DNA of 64,000 nucleotides from a virus (taxonomy: Duplodnaviria > Caudoviricetes), in the IMG/VR virus record IMGVR_UViG_3300046615_000768, positions 15,817 through 79,816 of that record; one strand, written 5' to 3'. Under the pieces are notes generated by a model. That model saw only the letters and a program-made list of their open reading frames with translations. It ran no database searches and was not told the DNA's origin. Both the position numbers and the translations under genes were made by a program. This document shows, piece after piece, positions 4,491 through 30,086 of this stretch; the stretch's first letter is position 1; each line of letters starts with the position of its first letter.

Positions 4491-4764
4491 CACCAGCAAT
4501 AAGACAGCGCACTGGTCGGATCGGAAGACGGCAGCGGTGCGTAGTGAGGCCCCTACTGTGGGATCTGTTTCTGAAACAGGGGCGATCGGCGGCGAAGACA
4601 GCACCGATGAAACGAAAGGCTGTCACGTCATGCGGCTCCGTCGGAGGGGAAGCGTGTAAAGGCAGGCGTAGGAAGGCTACGTCTGCCCACCATCAGAGGC
4701 AACGGGTTTAGCAGGCGGTAGCACAGAGCTAGAAGGCATGCAGTACCACTAACCAGGGGAACAA

Positions 4765-15479: not shown

Positions 15480-15932
15480 CTAGTGAAGTTGTGCGCGCAG
15501 CACGGGTTGCTGGTCGATGAAGCGGGGGTCGAACTCCGGGTCCCACGGGAACTTGCCGCTGGCGTCCGGCCAGACCAGCTGGATCGCGGTGTAGTCCTCG
15601 TGCCGGCGCCGGGTAGCAAACATGTACTCGTCGGCTTTGGCGCGCGGGACGGCCACGAACTGCGCGGGCAGGCCGTTCGCCACATCGTCGACGTTGGTGT
15701 CGAGCGGCACCGGGCCCTCTTCCTTCATGCGCAGGCAGATTTGATTGAGGAACGGGTGCGCGATCTGCATGGGCAGGCCGAAGACGATCACGTCCGGCAG
15801 GCCATGCGCGGCCATGCCGACCGTGTAGGCGAATCCGGGAGTGTCCTCGCCAGGGAAAACGCCCTGAATCGCCCAGCCGTAGCGGGCGATCATCGCGTCC
15901 ATTGAAGCGTCTACTTCTTTTCGTGTTTTCAT
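15480..15932 (-). CDS. DUF4262-like protein
   Basis: I..YGWA...V....PGFAYTVG....GLPD.IVFGL ... QLVWPD..G.FPW. Confidence 0.75.
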   Translation of the reverse strand: MKTRKEVDASMDAMIARYGWAIQGVFPGEDTPGFAYTVGMAAHGLPDVIVFGLPMQIAHPFLNQICLRMKEEGPVPLDTNVDDVANGLPAQFVAVPRAKADEYMFATRRRHEDYTAIQLVWPDASGKFPWDPEFDPRFIDQQPVLRAQLH

Positions 15933-17904: not shown

Positions 17905-18417
17905 TCAGAGTTGGCCGTGTTCGACGAAAGAGTAGGACTGGCTGGCGGTGACGATGATGTGGTCGAGGATGCGCACGTCGACGAGGGCAAGGGCCTGCGT
18001 CATCGTGCGGGTCAAAAGAAGATCGGCTTCGCTCGGGTCCGGCGTGCCCGACGGATGGTTATGCGCGAGAAGCAAACTGTTCGCGTTATGCCGCAGGGCA
18101 GACTTCACCACTTCCCGAGGGTAGACGCTGGTCTGTGTCAGCGAACCACGGAACATTTCCTCCGTGGCGATCACGCGATTTTTTACGTCCAAGAACAGCA
18201 CGCAGAACACTTCATGGTCGCGGCTCCCGATGGACAGGCGCAGATAGCTACGCGCCGCATCAGGGCTCCCCAGCAGCTCCCCAGGTACGCGCATGCGGCG
18301 TTCGAGGATGGACAGCGCATGCCGGATCGTGGCGTCTTCGCGCTGACGTTTCAGCTCGTCGGGGTCCGGCGCCGCGACATACGCGACCTGGGCTTCGGTT
18401 GCCTTGCTCGTTCTCAT
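17905..18417 (-). CDS. radC: RadC-family JAB/MPN domain protein
   Basis: HEVF..LFLD.KNR.I..E.MF.GS...[12 protein letters not shown]...LAHNHPSG...PS.AD; GGAGG RBS at 18422-18427. Confidence 0.92.
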
Positions 18418-18475
18418 CAAATCCTCCGTTATGGGTGGGTGACAGGGCGCCTGCAGGAGACTACCCCACGTCATC

Positions 18476-18504
18476 ACTATATAGCATGATGCTACATAGC
18501 TCAA
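18476..18504 (-). promoter_or_regulatory. Near-consensus sigma70 promoter of the leftward radC operon with spacer palindrome
   Basis: Minus strand TTGAGC-17 nt-TATAGT; TAGCAT-G-ATGCTA palindrome at 18482-18494. Confidence 0.7.
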
Positions 18505-18544: not shown

Positions 18545-19213
18545 ATGGACGACACCCCGAAGATGAAGGCCGATTGGGAGGCCATTGAGAAGCAGTACCG
18601 CGCTGGCGTTCTGTCGCTGCGCGAGATCGCACGGCAGCATGGCGTGACCGACGCAGCCATTCGCAAGCGGGCCAAGGTCAATGCGTGGGAGCGTGACCTG
18701 ACGGCGAAGGTGCAGGAGAAGGTACGGCTAGAGCTGGTACGCACAGAGGTACGCACCCCCAACACGCGCGAGCAAGTGCGTACCGAGCGCGAGATCGTCG
18801 ACAGCGCCGCGGCCACCGTCGTCCAGGTGGTGCGCGAACACCGCAAGGACATCAGCAACGGTCGCACGCTTGTATCGCTGCTGGCGTCCCAGCTGCTCGA
18901 CGTGGCTGGCCACCGCGATATCTTCATGGACGCGATCGAGGCCGAAACCGCTGACGACGAATCGGGCGAGCGCCGCGCCAAGATGCTCAAGGCCGTCTCG
19001 CTGCCGGTGCATGCGGCGACGATCCGGGACCTGTCGAACGCGATGAAGAACCTCGTGACGCTGGAGCGGCAGGCGTTCAGCGTCGGCGACGCACCGATCG
19101 AGAAGCCGGAGGAGCCGGCGAGCGCGACCCAGGTCGACGCCGGCTTCGCCGACCTGCGCGCCGCGTTCAACAAGCGCCTGAAAAAAGACGACGATGCCCC
19201 TGCAGCTTCCTGA
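18545..19213 (+). CDS. terS: Terminase small subunit
   Basis: DWEAIE..YRAG..SLREIA..HGVT..AIRKRAK...W.RDL N-terminal HTH; directly precedes terL. Confidence 0.8.
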   Translation: MDDTPKMKADWEAIEKQYRAGVLSLREIARQHGVTDAAIRKRAKVNAWERDLTAKVQEKVRLELVRTEVRTPNTREQVRTEREIVDSAAATVVQVVREHRKDISNGRTLVSLLASQLLDVAGHRDIFMDAIEAETADDESGERRAKMLKAVSLPVHAATIRDLSNAMKNLVTLERQAFSVGDAPIEKPEEPASATQVDAGFADLRAAFNKRLKKDDDAPAAS

Positions 19214-20819
19214 GGAATTCCGCCAGTCCCTGCAAGCGGCACCGTTCGAGGCGGTCGCCGACCTGTGGGAGATCATCGAGCGCACCTATGGCATCGAGGG
19301 CAAGGCCTGGCTCGGGCGCAACGACCGCTATTACCTGTTGATCCGATTGCTGCACCGGCTTGATGCCGTGCACCCGTGGCTGTACGCCCGGTGCCGAGAA
19401 GTGGAGGAGCGCCCAGACGGTCATCTTGACCTCTGGGCGCGATGTTGAGAACACTACAAAAGCACGGTCATTACCTACGCCGGCATCATCCAGGCCTTGA
19501 TCATCGACCCGGAAATCACGGTCGGGATTTTCAGCCACACGAAGCCAGTCGCACGTAAATTCCTGCTGCAGATCAAACAGGAGCTGGAGGCCAACGCGGA
19601 CCTGAAACTGGTCTACCCGGACGTGTTCTACTCGGACCCGCGCAACGAGTCGCCGAAGTGGTCCGAAGAGAAGGGGATCGTCGTCAAGCGGCGCTCAAAT
19701 CCCAAAGAAGCCTCTGTCGAGGCACACGGCCTTGTCGATGGACAGCCCACTGGCGCCCACTTCCTCCTGCGCGTGTATGACGACGTTGTCACCCGCGAGT
19801 CGGTGAGTACCCCGGAGCAGGTGGCCAAGACGACCTCCGCATGGGAGTTGAGCGATAACCTCGGCGCCCGCGGCCCCGACGGCAAGAGCCGCGCATGGCA
19901 CGTGGGCACCCGTTACTCGTTTCAGGACAGCTACCAGTCGATCATCGACCGCGGCGCGCTCATTCCGCGCCTGTACGCAGCCACCGACAACGGTATGCCG
20001 GACGGGAAGCCGATCCTGCTGACGCCCGAGGCCTGGGCCGATCGCAAGCTCAAACAGGGCCCGGCCACCATCGCCGCGCAGATGCTGCAGAACCCTGCAG
20101 CCGGCAACCAGGCGATGTTCAGGAAGGAGTGGCTCAGCTTCATCGACATCAGGCCGGCCACCCTGAACGTCTACATCATGGTCGACCCCGCCCACTCGAA
20201 GAAAAAGGGCAGCGACAACACCGCCATGGCCGTCGTCGGCATCGACTCGGGCGGGAACAAGTACCTGCTCGATGGGTTCAGGCACAAAATGGGCCTGCGC
20301 GAACGCTGGGAGGCCATGCGTGGCCTGCGCAAGGTGTGGATCGCACAGCCAGGCGTGCAAATGGTCAAGGTGGGCTATGAGCGTTACGGCCTTCAAGCCG
20401 ACCTCGAATATTTCGAGGAGCAGATGCAGCGCGAGAAGGATGCCTTCCACATCGACGAGCTGAATTGGGTCAGCGAGGGCGGGCAATCGAAAGACGATCG
20501 CGTGCAAAGGCTCCAGCCGGACTTCATGTCCAAGCGGTTCTACCTGGCCGCGGTGGTGCAGGGCGAGACGGCGAACCAGAAGCGCATCCGCGAGCAGGGC
20601 CAGTCGTTCAGGATCTTCCGGCCGGTCAACCGCAGGGACCACGAGGGCAATATCTACAGCCTGAACAAGGGCTTCCTCGAAGAATATCTGACGTACCCGT
20701 TCAGCGCGAAGAAGGACCTCATTGACGCAGTCTCCCGAGTGTTCGACTTGGAGCCGGTCGCGCCGACCATCATCGACGAACGGGTCCTCGAACCCGAGGT
20801 CTACGATGACGGCATGTAA
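19194..20819 (+). CDS. terL: Terminase large subunit interrupted by an in-frame TGA (19446-19448); recoded gene or pseudogene
   Basis: Track ORFs 19194..19448 and 19497..20819 share one frame: LDLWAR-C-*-EHYKSTVITY (Walker A), VYDDVV (Walker B), MVDPA..DNTA (RNase H nuclease), DLIDAVS. Confidence 0.85.
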
Positions 20820-23374: not shown

Positions 23375-26197
23375 ATGACCTCTACCCCCGACTGGCTGAC
23401 ACTGGCGCGCGACGCCTACACTGCCTCGACCGCCTATTTTGATGCGTCGATCCGGCAGCAGATCGAAGCCGATCTGCGCCAGTCGCAAGGGCAGCACCCG
23501 ACCGGCTCGAAGTACCTGTCCGACCGCGGCCGCTCGCGCCTGTTCCGACCCAAGACGCGCGCCACGATCCGCAAGAATGAAGCCCAGGCCGCCGAGGCCT
23601 TCTTCTCGACCACGGACGTGGTGGCGATCTCCCCCGAGAACGACAACGACCCGGTGCAAAAGGCGAGCGCTGCCGTCATGGGCGAGCTGCTGCAGTACAG
23701 GCTCACCAAGAGCATCCCGTGGTTCCTCACCCTCGTCGGTGCCTATCAGGACGCGCAGACCGTCGGCGTCGTGGCCTCGTACCAGTATTGGGAGTACAAC
23801 GAGAAGCGGAAGATCGACCGGCCAGCGATCCGCCTGATCCCTGTGGAGAATTTGCGCTTCGACCCCGGTGCGAACTGGACCGACCCGGTCGGCACCAGCC
23901 CCTACATCGTGGAGCTGATCCCGATGTATTTGGGCGAGGTCCGTCGCCGCATGAACAGCCCCGACCCCAAGACCGGCGAGGCCAAGTGGAAGAACCTGCC
24001 CGACGCCGTCATCCTGACCGCGACGAAGTCCTACGGCGACACGATCCGCATGCAGCGCGAGGGCCAGCGCACCGATTCCAAGTACCAGACGCAGGCCAAC
24101 AATTCGTACAACATCGTCTGGGTGCACAAGAACATCGTCAGCGTCGACGACGAGGACTTTGTCTATTACACGCTGGGCGTCGACCACCTGCTGTCGGACC
24201 CGCGCCCGCTCTCCGAAGTCTACTTCCACGGCAAGCGCCCGTATGTGATCGGTTCCTGCGTGGTCGAGACGCACAAGAACTACCCGTCCGGCGTGCCGCG
24301 CCTGACGCGCGACGTGCAGGCCGAGATCAACGAAGTGGCGAACTCGCGCATCGACAACGTCAAATTGGCGATGAATAAACGCTACTTCGCGCGCAGGAAC
24401 AAACAGGTCGATATCCGCAGCGTCACGCGCAACGTGCCGGGATCAGTGACCCTGATGCAGGACACGGACGATGTGAAGGTCGTCGAATTCAACGACGTGA
24501 CCGGCTCCAGCTACAAGGAGCAGGAGGTGTTGAACCTCGATTTCGACGACATGGCCGGTGCCTTCTCGGGATCGAGCGTACAGAGCAACCGCAAGCTGAA
24601 CGAGACGGTCGGCGGCATGAACCTGCTGTCCACCACGGCCAATCAGGTGTCCGGCTACCAGCTGCGGACCTTCGTGGAGACGTGGGTTGAGCCCGTGCTG
24701 CGCCAGATCGTCATGCTCGAACAGTATTACGAAACGGACGAAACAGTCCTCGGCCTGTGTGGCCAGGCTGCGGGCCTGTTCCAGAAGTTCGGCATCGACC
24801 AGATCACCGACGACATGCTGATGCAAGAGTTCACCTTGAATGTGAATGTTGGCATGGGAGCAACGAATCCGCAGGAACAGGTGCAACAGTTCATCAGCGG
24901 CATGCAGGCACTGCGCGACATTCTCGCCGACGGTTCCCTCATGGGCCTGGGCCTGAAAGTGGACGAAGTCATCACCGAACTGTTCGGCAAGCTTGGCTAC
25001 AAGGATGGCAGTCGCTTCTTCGAGCTGGAACAGCAGGACCCGCAGATCGCGCAGATGCAGCAGACCATCGACCAGCTCAAGGCGGATCTGGAGAAGAAGA
25101 TGCCGCAGGAGCTGCTGGAGGCGACGATCCGCCGCATCGACGCCGAGATCGCGTCCATGGGCGTGCGCGACAAGGTGGGCAACGCCGAAGCGGTCAAGAA
25201 GGGCTCCGAGGCGCAGTTCTCGGCCATGCAGACGGCGGAAGTCATCGCCGCCGTGCCAGCCGTGGCACCGATCGCGGACGAACTGATGAAGGCAGCGGGC
25301 TACGTGGTCCCGACGCCGACCGGCGTCGACCCGAACTTCCCGCAGCCGGCCACGCCGGACGCCGCGCTCGGCATCGAGGCGGTCAAGAACAGGCGCACGG
25401 GCATGGCCTTCATGCCTGGAGCGCCCGGACTGCCGGCGCCGTCGACCACCCTGCAGCCAGCCGCGCCCGCGGACTCGAACACCGGCCAGCGGCAAGGCAT
25501 CGAGACGGTACGCCCCGACAGCATCGCCCAGGCAGCGTTCGCCGACGGTGGACTGGTCCCGGCCCCGGACGAATACCTGACCTCGTACACCGCGCCGCAC
25601 CAGTATTCCGCGCAGCCGGTCCAGCAGGTCGTGCCCCCTTCGGTAATGCAGCAGATGACGCGGGCGATTGACAAGAACGGCGGCGACTTCATCAACGCGA
25701 GCGGCCAGCTCGACAACCTGCACGGCTACAACCTGGCAGCAGCGGGGATCGAGACGAACCTGCCGTACAGCCAGATCAAGGCCGAAGTGAACAACTCGAT
25801 GGTCAAGAGCGCGCTGAGTGAGTCGGCGTTCAACACCGGCAAGATGGGCGGCAGGATGAGCGAGGTCGTTGGCTACGCCGACGGGGGCGTCATCAGCGGC
25901 CCCGGCACCGGCACCTCGGATTCGATTGCCGCCATGGCTGCAGGACAGCCACTGGCCGTCTCGAACGGCGAATACCACGTGCCGGCCGCAGTGGTCGAAG
26001 CGCTCGGCGCCGACTTCTTCGAGCGCCTGATCGAGGACTTCCACACGCCGACCGGCTCGCCAGACCCCGCCATGCCCGTCTCGGGCGAGCCGCTGGCCAT
26101 GGAACCGGGAGATTTCGTGGTCCCGGCTGATGTCGTCGAGGCCTTGGGCCGTGACTTCTTCGACAAGCTCGTCGCCACGTTCGGAGGTGCGCAATGA
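23375..26197 (+). CDS. Portal protein (P22-like) with a long C-terminal extension
   Basis: Position between terL and scaffold; LFRPKTR, QAEINE..N.RIDNV, ETVGG, F.ETW.EP.LR motifs; 940 aa. Confidence 0.85.
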   Translation: MTSTPDWLTLARDAYTASTAYFDASIRQQIEADLRQSQGQHPTGSKYLSDRGRSRLFRPKTRATIRKNEAQAAEAFFSTTDVVAISPENDNDPVQKASAAVMGELLQYRLTKSIPWFLTLVGAYQDAQTVGVVASYQYWEYNEKRKIDRPAIRLIPVENLRFDPGANWTDPVGTSPYIVELIPMYLGEVRRRMNSPDPKTGEAKWKNLPDAVILTATKSYGDTIRMQREGQRTDSKYQTQANNSYNIVWVHKNIVSVDDEDFVYYTLGVDHLLSDPRPLSEVYFHGKRPYVIGSCVVETHKNYPSGVPRLTRDVQAEINEVANSRIDNVKLAMNKRYFARRNKQVDIRSVTRNVPGSVTLMQDTDDVKVVEFNDVTGSSYKEQEVLNLDFDDMAGAFSGSSVQSNRKLNETVGGMNLLSTTANQVSGYQLRTFVETWVEPVLRQIVMLEQYYETDETVLGLCGQAAGLFQKFGIDQITDDMLMQEFTLNVNVGMGATNPQEQVQQFISGMQALRDILADGSLMGLGLKVDEVITELFGKLGYKDGSRFFELEQQDPQIAQMQQTIDQLKADLEKKMPQELLEATIRRIDAEIASMGVRDKVGNAEAVKKGSEAQFSAMQTAEVIAAVPAVAPIADELMKAAGYVVPTPTGVDPNFPQPATPDAALGIEAVKNRRTGMAFMPGAPGLPAPSTTLQPAAPADSNTGQRQGIETVRPDSIAQAAFADGGLVPAPDEYLTSYTAPHQYSAQPVQQVVPPSVMQQMTRAIDKNGGDFINASGQLDNLHGYNLAAAGIETNLPYSQIKAEVNNSMVKSALSESAFNTGKMGGRMSEVVGYADGGVISGPGTGTSDSIAAMAAGQPLAVSNGEYHVPAAVVEALGADFFERLIEDFHTPTGSPDPAMPVSGEPLAMEPGDFVVPADVVEALGRDFFDKLVATFGGAQ

Positions 26198-28375: not shown

Positions 28376-30086
28376 ATGGCAGGTCAAGTCTGGCTCACCA
28401 ACAGCCTGGGTAAATGAAAGCTGCCCCGTCGCCGAGCAATCGGTGACTGATAATTGCGTGAATTGACAGGGAACCCCGACCGCGTAAAGGCGAGGGCAAT
28501 CTGCAGCCAAGCGCCGCGCAAGCGGTGAAGGTTCAACGATCATCCCCGAGGGGGGAGTAGGGCCAAGTGGCCCGAAGCGCGCAACGTCCCAAGCGGACGA
28601 TGAAATGATCTGGTCTTGCAGGTAACTGCAAGCTGCCGATGTGGGAATCGGCGGCGCCGGCGTAACGACCCGGCGTGAACTCATCAGGGCTATATGTGGT
28701 CCCCCAACCTCTCCAAAGTGCTGCGCATGGCAGTGCAGCCCCTCACCAAGTTCCGCCAGTTCAGCGACATCAAGGATGCCGCTGTCCAGGGCAAGGGCAT
28801 GGGCGAGGCGTTCCATTAACATACTGGTGGAACTAAAACCGACTCTGATTGACTTCAACCCCCGGCAGCGGGAAAGAAGGGGCAAGCAAGCCGCAAGGCT
28901 GTGCAGCCTGAGAGACTAAGCGAGTTGGCCCCGGCAACGGGGATGCGATAGTCCGAACACGGCATATAACCTGATGAAAGCCGTGAGGTGGCAGAAATGA
29001 CCACCCGCCAGCGTCAACCACGCTGGTCATCAAGTAACAGACTGTGGAACGTTTACAGCGATGTGGCAACGCAAGGCACCACCCTCACCGAGGGCGTCGC
29101 CATGCCGACCACGAACTTCGTGATCACGCAGGGCACGATGACGGTCACGGAACTCGGCAATAGTGTTCCGTACAGCTCCAAGCTGGACGACCTGTCGGAG
29201 CAGCCGGTCAAAGAGATCATCTCGAAGGTGTTGAAAAATGACGCGAAAAAGGCGTTCGACACCGCAGCCGAGGCGCAGTTCCGCCTCACGCCGCTGCGCG
29301 TCGTGCCAACCGGCGGCACCTCCACCAGCTCGGTCACGTTGACCACCAACGGCACCGCCGCTGCGGCCAACAACGTCGCTCTGGGCAAGAACCACGTGAA
29401 GTCGATCGTCGACATCATGAAAGAACGAAACGTGCCGCCGTATCTGCAGGACGACTACATTTCGCTCGCCCACCCGACGACCTTCCGCCAGGTGAAGAAC
29501 GATCTGGAGCAGGTCCACCAGTACGTCGATCAGGGTTTCCAAATGATCCTGAACGGCGAGATCGGCCGATACGAAAGTGTCCGCTTCGTGGAGCAGACCA
29601 ACATCAGCAAGAGGGGCTTCGCATCGGGCGCCTCGAACTGGGCGTATTTTTTTGGGGCCGATACCGTGGCAGAAGGCATCGTTATTCCTGAGGAGATGCG
29701 CGGGATGATCCCAGGCGACTACGGTCGTCAGCGTGGCGTGGCATGGTACTACTTGGGTAAATAACACTGCCCCGTTCTGGCGAAAGCCAGGACTGATAAC
29801 TTCGTGAACTCAGGGGAACTCCCACCCGCACCATGCGGAGGACAATCCTGATCTGAGCCCCGCAAGGGGAAAGAGCAACGACCATCCCGGAAGCGGGAGT
29901 AGGGCCAAGCGGCCCGAAGTGCGAAGCGCCTTCACTGGCGATGATATGGTCTGATCTTGCAGGTAACTGCAAGCTGCCGAGAGGCGGCGCAGGGAGTAGC
30001 GACCCGGCGTGAACATAATGGGTTTCGGTATCGTCCACACCAACCCGCAGCAGTCGCGGATCGTGATGTGGGACTCGACGACCTAA
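28376..30086 (+). CDS. Major capsid protein (resembles N4-gp56 family), spliced: join(28376..28411,28688..28816,29045..29758,30021..30086), 314 aa
   Basis: AGGAG RBS; spliced product MAGQVWLTNSLG|GYMWSPNLSKVLRMAVQPLTKFRQF...GEAFH|WNVYSDV...GEIG.YE.VRFVE...DYGRQRGVAWYYLG|GFGIVH...WDSTT* is one continuous frame. Confidence 0.9.
28412..28687 (+). ncRNA. Group I self-splicing intron 1 (276 nt, IA2-like, no ORF)
   Basis: Exon ends in U, intron ends in G; P1 GGGU/GCCC; P7 GAUCA(28538-42)/UGAUC(28606-10); P7.1/P7.2 hairpins; P9 CUUGCAG-GUAA-CUGCAAG. Confidence 0.9.
28817..29044 (+). ncRNA. Group I self-splicing intron 2 (228 nt, no P7.1/P7.2, no ORF)
   Basis: P1 UUCCAU/GUGGAA(28827-32) with U.G at the splice site; canonical GAGAGACUA...AUAGUCC P7 (28914-18/28949-53); terminal G. 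Confidence 0.9.
29759..30020 (+). ncRNA. Group I self-splicing intron 3 (262 nt, paralogue of intron 1, no ORF)
   Basis: P1 GGGU/GCCC(29769-72); P7 GACCA(29880-84)/UGGUC(29947-51); same P7.2 and P9 as intron 1; terminal G. Confidence 0.9.

Follow-up and report, generated by a model that had tools for sequence, protein, structure and literature searches.

Why should a phage gene for the large terminase subunit (terL) carry a stop codon in the middle of what we take to be its Walker A motif, with the rest of the gene intact on both sides? The question is raised by a 64,000-nucleotide (nt) stretch of viral DNA (Duplodnaviria; Caudoviricetes; IMG/VR record IMGVR_UViG_3300046615_000768, positions 15,817 to 79,816), the whole of which is called the window here. 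Positions 19431-19463 of the window read CTC TGG GCG CGA TGT TGA GAA CAC TAC AAA AGC. An open reading frame (ORF) at 19194-19448 ends in ...DLWARC and a stop, and the frame continues unchanged into EHYKST... for 456 codons, up to a stop at 20817-20819. The closest uninterrupted homologues (P0002-P0004; 538-539 amino acids (aa), 85-92% identical) read DLWAREHYKST at this junction, and the window gene therefore has exactly 6 extra nt, TGT TGA (19443-19448), between the Arg codon CGA (19440-19442) and the Glu codon GAA (19449-19451). The first-pass annotation, made without database searches, had described an exact, frame-preserving 6-nt insertion in the Walker A region of terL, which no point mutation could explain and whose removal would restore the family form WAREHYKS, and the alignment with P0002-P0004 bears this out. 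From the comparison of related alleles we propose, with a probability of roughly 0.5, that terL is a working gene with a 6-nt coding gap, across which ribosomes would make a short, programmed forward hop (translational bypassing).

The terL insertion is real, being neither an artefact nor limited to the window genome. The record comes from a single metagenome assembly, and a collapse of the assembly at a longer intervening element had been among the explanations offered at first. However, in a separate assembly of the only public run that contains this DNA, a contig is identical to the window over 18900-19796, at a depth of about 10, and has no loose end at the gap site. This match rules out only an error of one assembler, as the run may equal the rhizosphere source sample. 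Among the sequencing runs listed for the stretch, none was of RNA. In addition, a different phage contig (L003), which is 78% identical in nt and 83% in aa over the part of terL that follows the gap (the C part), carries the same TGTTGA at the same junction, and related inserts were found in many samples. A sequencing or assembly artefact, or a collapsed element, has in our view a practically negligible probability, and the concern that the insertion might be unique to this genome, and hence a simple pseudogene, did not hold.

Related genes are interrupted at the same junction. Viral and metagenome contigs were scanned with a DNA pattern that was blind to stop codons and accepted between 1 and 12 additional bases of any kind behind the Arg codon, and further insert alleles came to light. 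The distinct junction haplotypes with DNA number 124, 117 of them gapless and seven with gaps of 4-7 nt. The seven fall into five classes: TGTTGA between CGA and GAA (6 nt; window and L003), AGTCCAT between CGA and GAA (7 nt; L095), AGGT between CGA and GAG (4 nt; L091 and L106), TGACCGA between CGC and GAA (7 nt; L096) and TAGGT between CGT and GAA (5 nt; L113). The 6-nt gap of the window has no counterpart in the 117 uninterrupted haplotypes, among which W-x-R-E-x-x-K shows no change of length. All five classes from this stop-blind pattern place a 0-frame stop within two codons, for which we estimate a chance of about 3e-4. The codon after Arg is itself a stop in L096 (TGA) and L113 (TAG), and in the other insert alleles Arg is followed by a rare UGU, AGU or AGG with a stop one or two codons on. 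TGT accounts for 0.6 per 1000 codons in the window phage, and AGT and AGG for 1.4 and 2.4 if the usage of this phage is applied to the relatives.

Protein records extend the set. The C-terminal gene calls P0026, P0062, P0079, P0083 and P0085 begin in the wrong frame and join the family at EHYKS, and N-terminal products end in LWARC, LWARCW, LWARSP, LWARCP, LWARS or LWARR. A profile of the N-terminal fragment found 373 short relatives, and about 45 of the best 120 clusters terminate 0-3 residues past LWxR. Several of the split N-fragment clusters lie on contigs of 14-63 kilobases (kb), and one cluster occurs on 61 contigs. Junctions rebuilt from two overlapping frames gave TGTTGGT (P0083/P0128) and TGTCCAT (P0079/P0125), and in P0026 (466 aa) the two frames imply a 4-nt insert, GCGA, after CGA (CGA-G-CGA-GAA), with matched Arg codons. 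Pattern scans of metagenome and genome contigs gave, among the matches listed, only repeats of the known insert classes, and three further viral scans with distant N-fragments yielded no new class. Since the 456 C-terminal codons are unbroken in all of the 80 closest loci, the lesion is site-specific, far beyond chance.

The inserts are accompanied by a nucleotide module on their 5' side. A 59-nt block at 19398-19456 (+ strand), which comprises a GGAGG, a hairpin and the Arg codon together with the gap and 8 nt beyond it, is identical in the window and L003, the rest of these genes being 78% identical in nt; zero differences over this block have a probability of about 5e-7 at the background identity. 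The Shine-Dalgarno-like GGAGG (19403-19407, +), whose role is putative, immediately precedes the hairpin on its 5' side, at a distance of 32 nt from the Arg codon, and is present in all seven insert haplotypes as against 18 of the 117 uninterrupted ones. The hairpin (19409-19440, +) has 14 base pairs (bp), one bulged C and a 3-nt loop, GCGCCCAGA-C-GGUCA-UCU-UGACC-UCUGGGCGC, and at its 3' end it takes in the first base of the Arg codon. Its minimum free energy is -26.2 kcal/mol (z score -5.4), and none of 200 shuffles was equally stable. The same architecture is common to all seven insert alleles. The 42 nt ending at Arg fold with -26.2, -26.2, -23.2, -20.1, -18.0, -14.5 and -13.7 kcal/mol in the insert alleles, compared to a mean of -12.3 (standard deviation 3.6, minimum -19.5) in the 117 uninterrupted ones, so that four insert alleles are more stable than every uninterrupted allele. 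In the alignment of the hairpin 95.6% of cells are paired, with one compensatory pair.

Codon choice follows the same division. GC before the Pro codon was found in 6/7 insert alleles and 5/117 uninterrupted ones, CCA for Pro in 6/7 and 19/117, CTC for Leu in 6/7 and 24/117, and CGA for Arg in 5/7 and 8/117. The phage has 65% G+C, and the hairpin uses its rare synonymous codons, the shares within the respective amino acid being 10% for CCA, 9% for GGT, 11% for CAT, 4% for CTT and 3% for CGA. A few uninterrupted alleles (L418, L412, L419, L074, L078 and L062) have a fairly strong hairpin (up to -18.7 kcal/mol), a CGA Arg codon, or both; these could be precursors of the interrupted form or alleles after clean loss of the insert.

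As the first-pass annotation had judged from the window alone, the remainder of terL is intact. The N parts are open in all seven insert alleles, the C parts are open for 456-458 codons, and the ratio of nonsynonymous to synonymous substitution rates (dN/dS) of the C part is 0.14 between the window and L003 (dS 0.96) and 0.10 between L091 and L106 (dS 1.55). The insert-bearing terL halves are under purifying selection. In a quick tree of the C parts, with SH-aLRT (approximate likelihood-ratio test) support only, insert alleles occupy at least five places: L091 groups with L106 and L096 with L113, and the window and L003 each stand beside uninterrupted alleles (L001 and L002). To judge from these sequences, the inserts in the two clades are probably ancestral, in genes that are still constrained. 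Insert length differs within the L096/L113 clade (7 vs 5 nt), and the change may have run in either direction.

These results bear directly on the possibility that the gene is dead, the insert being a knock-out lesion (a nuclease or repair scar, or a small selfish gene-conversion patch) that arrived newly in the terL of defective or plasmid-borne prophages. There is an in-frame stop inside an essential motif, and the IMG/VR record is classed as a provirus (CheckV 80% complete). The 59-nt block sits on different terL backgrounds in the window and L003, each nearest to an uninterrupted allele, which indicates that the patch recombines and could be recent. Moreover, LAGLIDADG inteins lie 12 nt downstream in five relatives, showing that the site is attacked by homing elements, and an HNH_3 endonuclease gene abuts terL in L106. 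Nevertheless, seven diverged alleles and dozens of protein clusters share a single lesion at one inter-codon junction, and one insert allele is found on 61 contigs. L091 and L106 share AGGT within one clade, at the dS and dN/dS given above, without any second lesion, and the L096/L113 clade keeps its inserts of 7 and 5 nt, again without a second lesion. Random scars would not be expected to combine a rare Arg codon and a strengthened hairpin with a stop in each of the classes. Nor does a second copy offer itself, as there was one terL per record searched: a single phrog_38 match in the 79.8-kb record and one terL in each of five relatives' records. A dead gene is in our judgement unlikely, and the domesticating knock-out that had been suggested for the window is disfavoured by the purifying selection and the conserved nucleotide module.

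For the hop that we favour, the following course can be proposed. The ribosome covers about 15 nt on the 5' side of the P site. Once the rare, weakly pairing CGA (19440-19442) occupies the P site, the ribosome would enclose the hairpin's entire 3' arm (-13 to 0), and the loop and the 5' arm would already lie just beyond it. Decoding in the A site would be slow, because the very rare UGU comes next, followed by a stop. In a fraction of ribosomes the peptidyl-tRNA-Arg would detach and the mRNA slide 6 nt forward, and this slide would be favoured by re-forming of the hairpin at the mRNA exit, a movement of 4-7 nt being enough for the inner stem. The tRNA could then re-pair on the near-cognate UGA and decoding would restart at GAA, giving a TerL with the normal LWAREHYKST. 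Those ribosomes that decode UGU would terminate at UGA and yield an 84-aa fragment, so that the gap may lower or tune TerL output. In the relatives an equivalent hop of 4, 5 or 7 nt would be made.

The variation in insert length among alleles helps to place the take-off site. One fixed frameshift or read-through event cannot correct inserts of 4, 5, 6 and 7 nt alike. Take-off from Arg is preferred because only a hop from Arg to the triplet before GAR gives LWAREHYKS for every insert length. The triplets before GAR are CGA (L096), GGT, CAT and TGA (window), each of which fits CGN at 2-3 positions; the CGA landing triplet of L096 is a perfect match to its CGC take-off codon, and the other classes are near-cognate. 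One of the options first raised for the window, UGA read-through or a stop-hop from UGU to UGA, therefore survives in part. A hop is the nearest to our best reading, but UGU as its take-off codon does not agree with the two classes that have a stop right after Arg, and plain read-through of UGA is unlikely.

We also considered that the gap is decoded, by UGA read-through or a UGU hop in the window and by a +1, -1 or +2 shift at the stop in relatives, which would add 1-2 residues to TerL after Arg and before Glu. Both read-through and +1 shifts, the latter as in prfB, are classically triggered by a stop in the A site. The 4- and 7-nt classes end in T before GAR, so that a TGA overlaps the Glu codon like a shifty stop, and duplexes upstream of the shift site stimulate +1 shifts (PMC6321510). 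Yet the products would vary by 0, 1 or 2 residues (C, S, R, SP, CP or CW) at a motif whose length is constant in the 117 uninterrupted haplotypes and in which R83, E84, Y86, K87 and S88 are invariant. The pre-stop codons CCA, UGG, AGG and UGU are unable to re-pair after a +1 slip, the 5-nt class requires another shift than the 4- and 7-nt classes, and the phage has no suppressor tRNA and uses TGA as the ordinary stop of 9 of its 19 genes. Taken together, these points make decoding of the gap distinctly unlikely.

The gap might instead be removed before translation, either by cutting and re-joining of the RNA beside the hairpin or by a sub-population of insert-free DNA that supplies TerL. A strong hairpin that ends 2 nt before the gap could guide a nuclease, and the capsid gene of this phage relies on RNA splicing, with two group I introns above the Rfam threshold. 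On the other hand, no group I or group II intron could be accommodated in so short a gap, Rfam gives no match at the site, and we know of no bacterial or phage system that excises 4-7 nt from mRNA. The re-assembled contigs of the run carry the insert form only and show no joint across it, although contigs drop rare variants. We regard removal of the gap as very unlikely.

The last alternative accepts the stop at face value and supposes that TerL is made as two polypeptides, the 84-aa N fragment and a C fragment, which assemble into an active enzyme. It could draw on the 7-nt alleles, in which a start has been called (ATG GTC ATC...) for an overlapping C-terminal ORF, MVILTFGREVHEHYKS... In the window, however, the first in-frame start past the stop is the TTG at 19497, beyond EHYKST, and a C piece begun there would be without the P-loop lysine. 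The break lies inside the P-loop, and the extra N-terminal residues of the overlapping ORFs are wrong-frame sequence that is unconserved as protein. A two-piece terminase is accordingly highly improbable.

Several observations weigh against the proposed hop. We infer the hop, and with it its efficiency and purpose, from comparison alone. Efficiency could be very low in the window, where tRNA-Arg would land on a triplet that is no better than near-cognate, UGA, and the codon after take-off is a sense codon, UGU. The insert deduced for P0026, from protein only, has no 0-frame stop nearby and is an exception to the stop rule. As regards the hairpin, the two insert alleles of low GC content do not exceed the family mean in folding stability, and covariation amounts to one compensatory pair in five distinct sequences, a level reached by 97 of 500 shuffles. 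The hairpin is also partly latent in the coding sequence, as uninterrupted alleles pair at 6-8 of nine stem positions, and by the count of paired positions the contrast between insert and uninterrupted alleles is smaller than by folding energy. The enrichment counts for the module ignore the relatedness of the alleles, and the module could have spread by gene conversion instead of being retained for a function; the window and L003 share the identical 59-nt block on different backgrounds. Finally, the nearest published case, a bypass proposed for the terminase of the Streptomyces phage phiHau3, is itself unproven.

Other forms of recoding and other origins of the insert were examined and rejected. 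A vicinal Cys-selenocysteine pair, which had been considered for the window, finds no support: the 60 nt downstream fold like shuffles (z +0.45), Rfam gives no match to a selenocysteine insertion sequence, no tRNA gene was found in the window or in the whole record, and relatives carry frame-shifting inserts. Reassignment of TGA (genetic code 4 or 25) can be discarded, as 9 of 19 long genes terminate with TGA and the remaining ones have open frames under table 11. A +1 frameshift of the prfB type would have to act on UGU UGA G, which offers no +1 re-pairing, with GGAGG as far as 32 nt upstream of Arg, and a +1 shift cannot correct a 6-nt in-frame insert. Re-initiation at the AUG within CGAUGU fails since that AUG is out of frame with EHYKS. 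Skipping by RNA polymerase, induced by the hairpin, would not delete bases that have already been transcribed, and template switching at a quasi-palindrome is not a plausible source of the insert, for the inserted bases neither extend the stem nor complement its flank.

The gene around the gap is assigned to the large terminase subunits. Its first part (19194-19442, +) has 83 codons from the ATG to the Arg of ...PDGHLDLWAR, known from ORF and translation, and corresponds in alignments to the N-terminal ends of the 538-539-aa homologues and to other split N-fragments; the Arg codon that closes it, the last before the gap and the proposed take-off codon, is the form used for 3% of the Arg codons of the phage. 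After the rare Cys codon TGT and the 0-frame stop TGA come the EHYKST codons (19449-19466, +), the remainder of the Walker A motif, with invariant E84, Y86, K87, S88 and T89, where resumption at GAA is proposed. The second part (19449-20819, +) comprises 456 codons and a stop and encodes the nuclease domain and what remains of the ATPase domain; its match to phrog_38 (E 1.7e-41) spans residues 2-438 of the C part. Over 20 aligned homologues W81, R83, E84, Y86, K87, S88 and T89 are invariant, and EHGKS stands in place of EHYKS in some relatives. We presume that LWAREHYKST is the Walker A motif on the strength of the motif itself and general knowledge of terminases. An AlphaFold2 model has a loop at residues 73-86 followed by a helix that starts at K87-S88-T89, with a local confidence score (pLDDT) below 50. 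Sequence and profile searches of Pfam and the Protein Data Bank with terL gave no match. The top Foldseek matches of a homologue's model were all large terminases (PhiV-1 8dgc_E, E 3.9e-10; herpes simplex virus 6m5u; D6E; T4 gp17; HK97; Sf6; P22 nuclease), but this model is weak (pLDDT 58.7, template-modelling scores 0.2-0.3), so that the matches do no more than support the assignment, and its quality is insufficient for locating the insert in three dimensions.

The neighbourhood agrees with this assignment. The small subunit gene terS (18545-19213, +; phrog_1206, E 1.9e-55) adjoins terL, its 3' end overlapping the terL start by 20 nt, and terL lies upstream of the portal gene (phrog_1216; 23375-26197, +). 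A nucleotide search of cultured phages gave no match, and the protein search found among them only terminases of 24-27% identity, from Vibrio, Citrobacter and Klebsiella phages. Two weak matches were obtained in 401 Burkholderiales genomes, with no isolate host.

Homing elements target this part of terL, to judge from the inteins of relatives. In L047, L052, L057, L059 and L073 about 1 kb is inserted at EHYK/S, 12 nt downstream of the gap site; these inteins have about 330 aa and LAGLIDADG motifs, their first residue is Ala, Met or Gly instead of Cys, and their end reads THN/S. A second terL site is occupied in P0018 and P0019 (791-795 aa) by an intein of about 255 aa (…GPxTIAC/HCAG…NGYASKN/CQMLQNPAAG). 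An insert of 4-7 nt would be predicted to alter the target of the EHYK/S inteins. The gap had also been read as the footprint of an excised element, and this may stand as a possible origin only. A search of the window genome for homing endonuclease genes gave none. No HNH, HNH_3 or GIY-YIG match was obtained in the window genome, L003 or L095, and no endonuclease domain in the ORFs that flank terL; L091 (a record of 4.9 kb) and L113 were searched for HNH_3 only, with none found. In L106 an HNH_3 gene (382-876, +; PF13392, E 7.8e-15; phrog_99, E 2.3e-61) is convergent with terL (879-2333, -) and lies 3 nt from its 3' end. A hint of GIY-YIG upstream of terL in L096 was dropped, as neither Pfam nor PHROGs confirmed it on the ORF. 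With an endonuclease gene beside terL in one of seven insert-bearing records (L106), such a linked gene is not a general feature of insert alleles.

Elsewhere in the window, two group I introns (28402-28632 and 29749-29973, +) score above the Rfam gathering threshold (52.9 and 51.2 bits) and are situated within the major head gene or next to it (phrog_1357 match at 28988-29764). A full-length match to the Betaproteobacteria-1 small RNA at 4505-4628 (+; RF02932, 85.5 bits) indicates a betaproteobacterial host, and one close terL homologue comes from a Telluria metagenome-assembled genome. The portal-like protein encoded at 23375-26197 has 940 aa, and its last ~120 residues weakly match phrog_3547 and phrog_971 (tape-measure and endolysin families), which suggests a portal-like protein with a fused C-terminal domain. 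On the opposite strand, just upstream of terS, lies a RadC-like "DNA repair protein" gene (17905-18504, -; phrog_10276, E 1.6e-34).

The terminase family thus provides dozens of natural variants with gaps of 4-7 nt and differing first codons, landing triplets and hairpin strengths, at one invariant junction with an unambiguous product, LWAREHYK, so that rules of short-range hopping become directly testable. It also has a practical side, in that gene callers split or mis-start gapped terL genes (P0026, P0062, P0079, P0083), with the risk that their phages are counted as defective. Should TerL synthesis be limited or conditioned by the gap, packaging would be under post-transcriptional control in a phage-plasmid-like element whose capsid already requires intron splicing. 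A wider reading, which we put forward as tentative and rather doubtful, is that GGAGG, 5' hairpin, Arg CGH and a stop-containing gap of 4-7 nt together form a portable recoding cassette for short forward hops, driven by re-folding of the hairpin at the mRNA exit, with the window as the first natural in-frame stop-hop. Such a cassette would have spread among terminase genes by gene conversion and would be kept for breaking the P-loop intein target, for making TerL output depend on how much of a rare tRNA is available, or for both.

To our knowledge, natural translational bypassing is firmly established only for gene 60 of T4 and its homologues and for the byp elements of yeast mitochondria. As in gene 60, a non-coding gap here splits one essential gene, a stop or "hungry" codon follows take-off, the presumed take-off and landing triplets are matched or nearly so, the cassette moves by recombination, and pairing of the mRNA 5' of take-off is the proposed forward driver. 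The gap of gene 60 has 50 nt, however, and one of 4-7 nt leaves no room for a take-off stem-loop or a Shine-Dalgarno sequence within it. A nascent-peptide signal is not known here, and the phage has no relation to T4, its gene encoding a terminase where that of T4 encodes a topoisomerase. Gene 60 is also part of a mobA homing-endonuclease cassette, whereas no endonuclease gene adjoins the window terL. Conserved stop or "hungry" codons have been described at the start of T4-type gaps (bioRxiv 10.1101/2022.08.31.505936), and pairing of the mRNA that leaves the ribosome has been proposed to drive forward bypassing in gene 60 (bioRxiv 10.1101/2024.12.09.627546), although in its homologues the 5' stem-loop is reported to be unconserved. 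Upstream hairpins that refold stimulate forward (+1) shifts on bacterial 70S ribosomes (PMC6321510). The prfB gene, which encodes release factor 2, differs in its slippery CUU U and in a movement of 1 nt, as against 4-7 nt here without a codon for +1 re-pairing.

The byp elements are 27-55 nt long. They are mitochondrial, longer than the terL gaps and scattered over many sites, where we find one fixed junction of one phage gene. In Magnusiomyces capitatus mitochondria they form many short inserts in essential genes, which are bypassed (PMC5009743).

The closest parallel is phiHau3. UUA-led inserts of 10 nt and 7 nt have been described in terL of phiHau3, the StrepC.1 prophage and an S. catenulae prophage (7 nt), and bypass has been proposed for them, although unproven (PMC10732093; PMC5009743). 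These too are short non-coding inserts at highly conserved terL junctions, the first of which, KGWG/KD, we take as its Walker A. Each insert is led by a codon very rare in the host, with a stop soon after and local RNA structure reported, and bypass was argued there from the improbability of extra residues at an invariant junction. The window resembles this arrangement in its rare UGU and then UGA between the invariant R83 and E84, but its leading codon is not UUA and its frame is kept. Further differences are the host (an actinomycete vs a betaproteobacterium here), a terminase whose sequence looks unrelated, and the trigger, which is UUA there and UGU, AGU, AGG or a stop here. The gaps of phiHau3 are longer than the 4-7 nt found here, where that of the window is in frame. 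A conserved strong hairpin 5' of the take-off codon marks the present family, which has dozens of clusters as against three genes.

Lastly, synthetic stop-hops and short hops in Escherichia coli show how the peptidyl-tRNA can leave at a slow A site and re-pair a few bases on, 9 nt then being read as one amino acid (PMC5009743). The same kind of product is proposed for the window. The E. coli events were engineered or accidental, of low efficiency and between matched codons; the terL junction is a natural, conserved and hairpin-linked site, and according to the same review no natural in-frame stop-hop is known (PMC5009743), a place that the window terL would be a candidate to fill.

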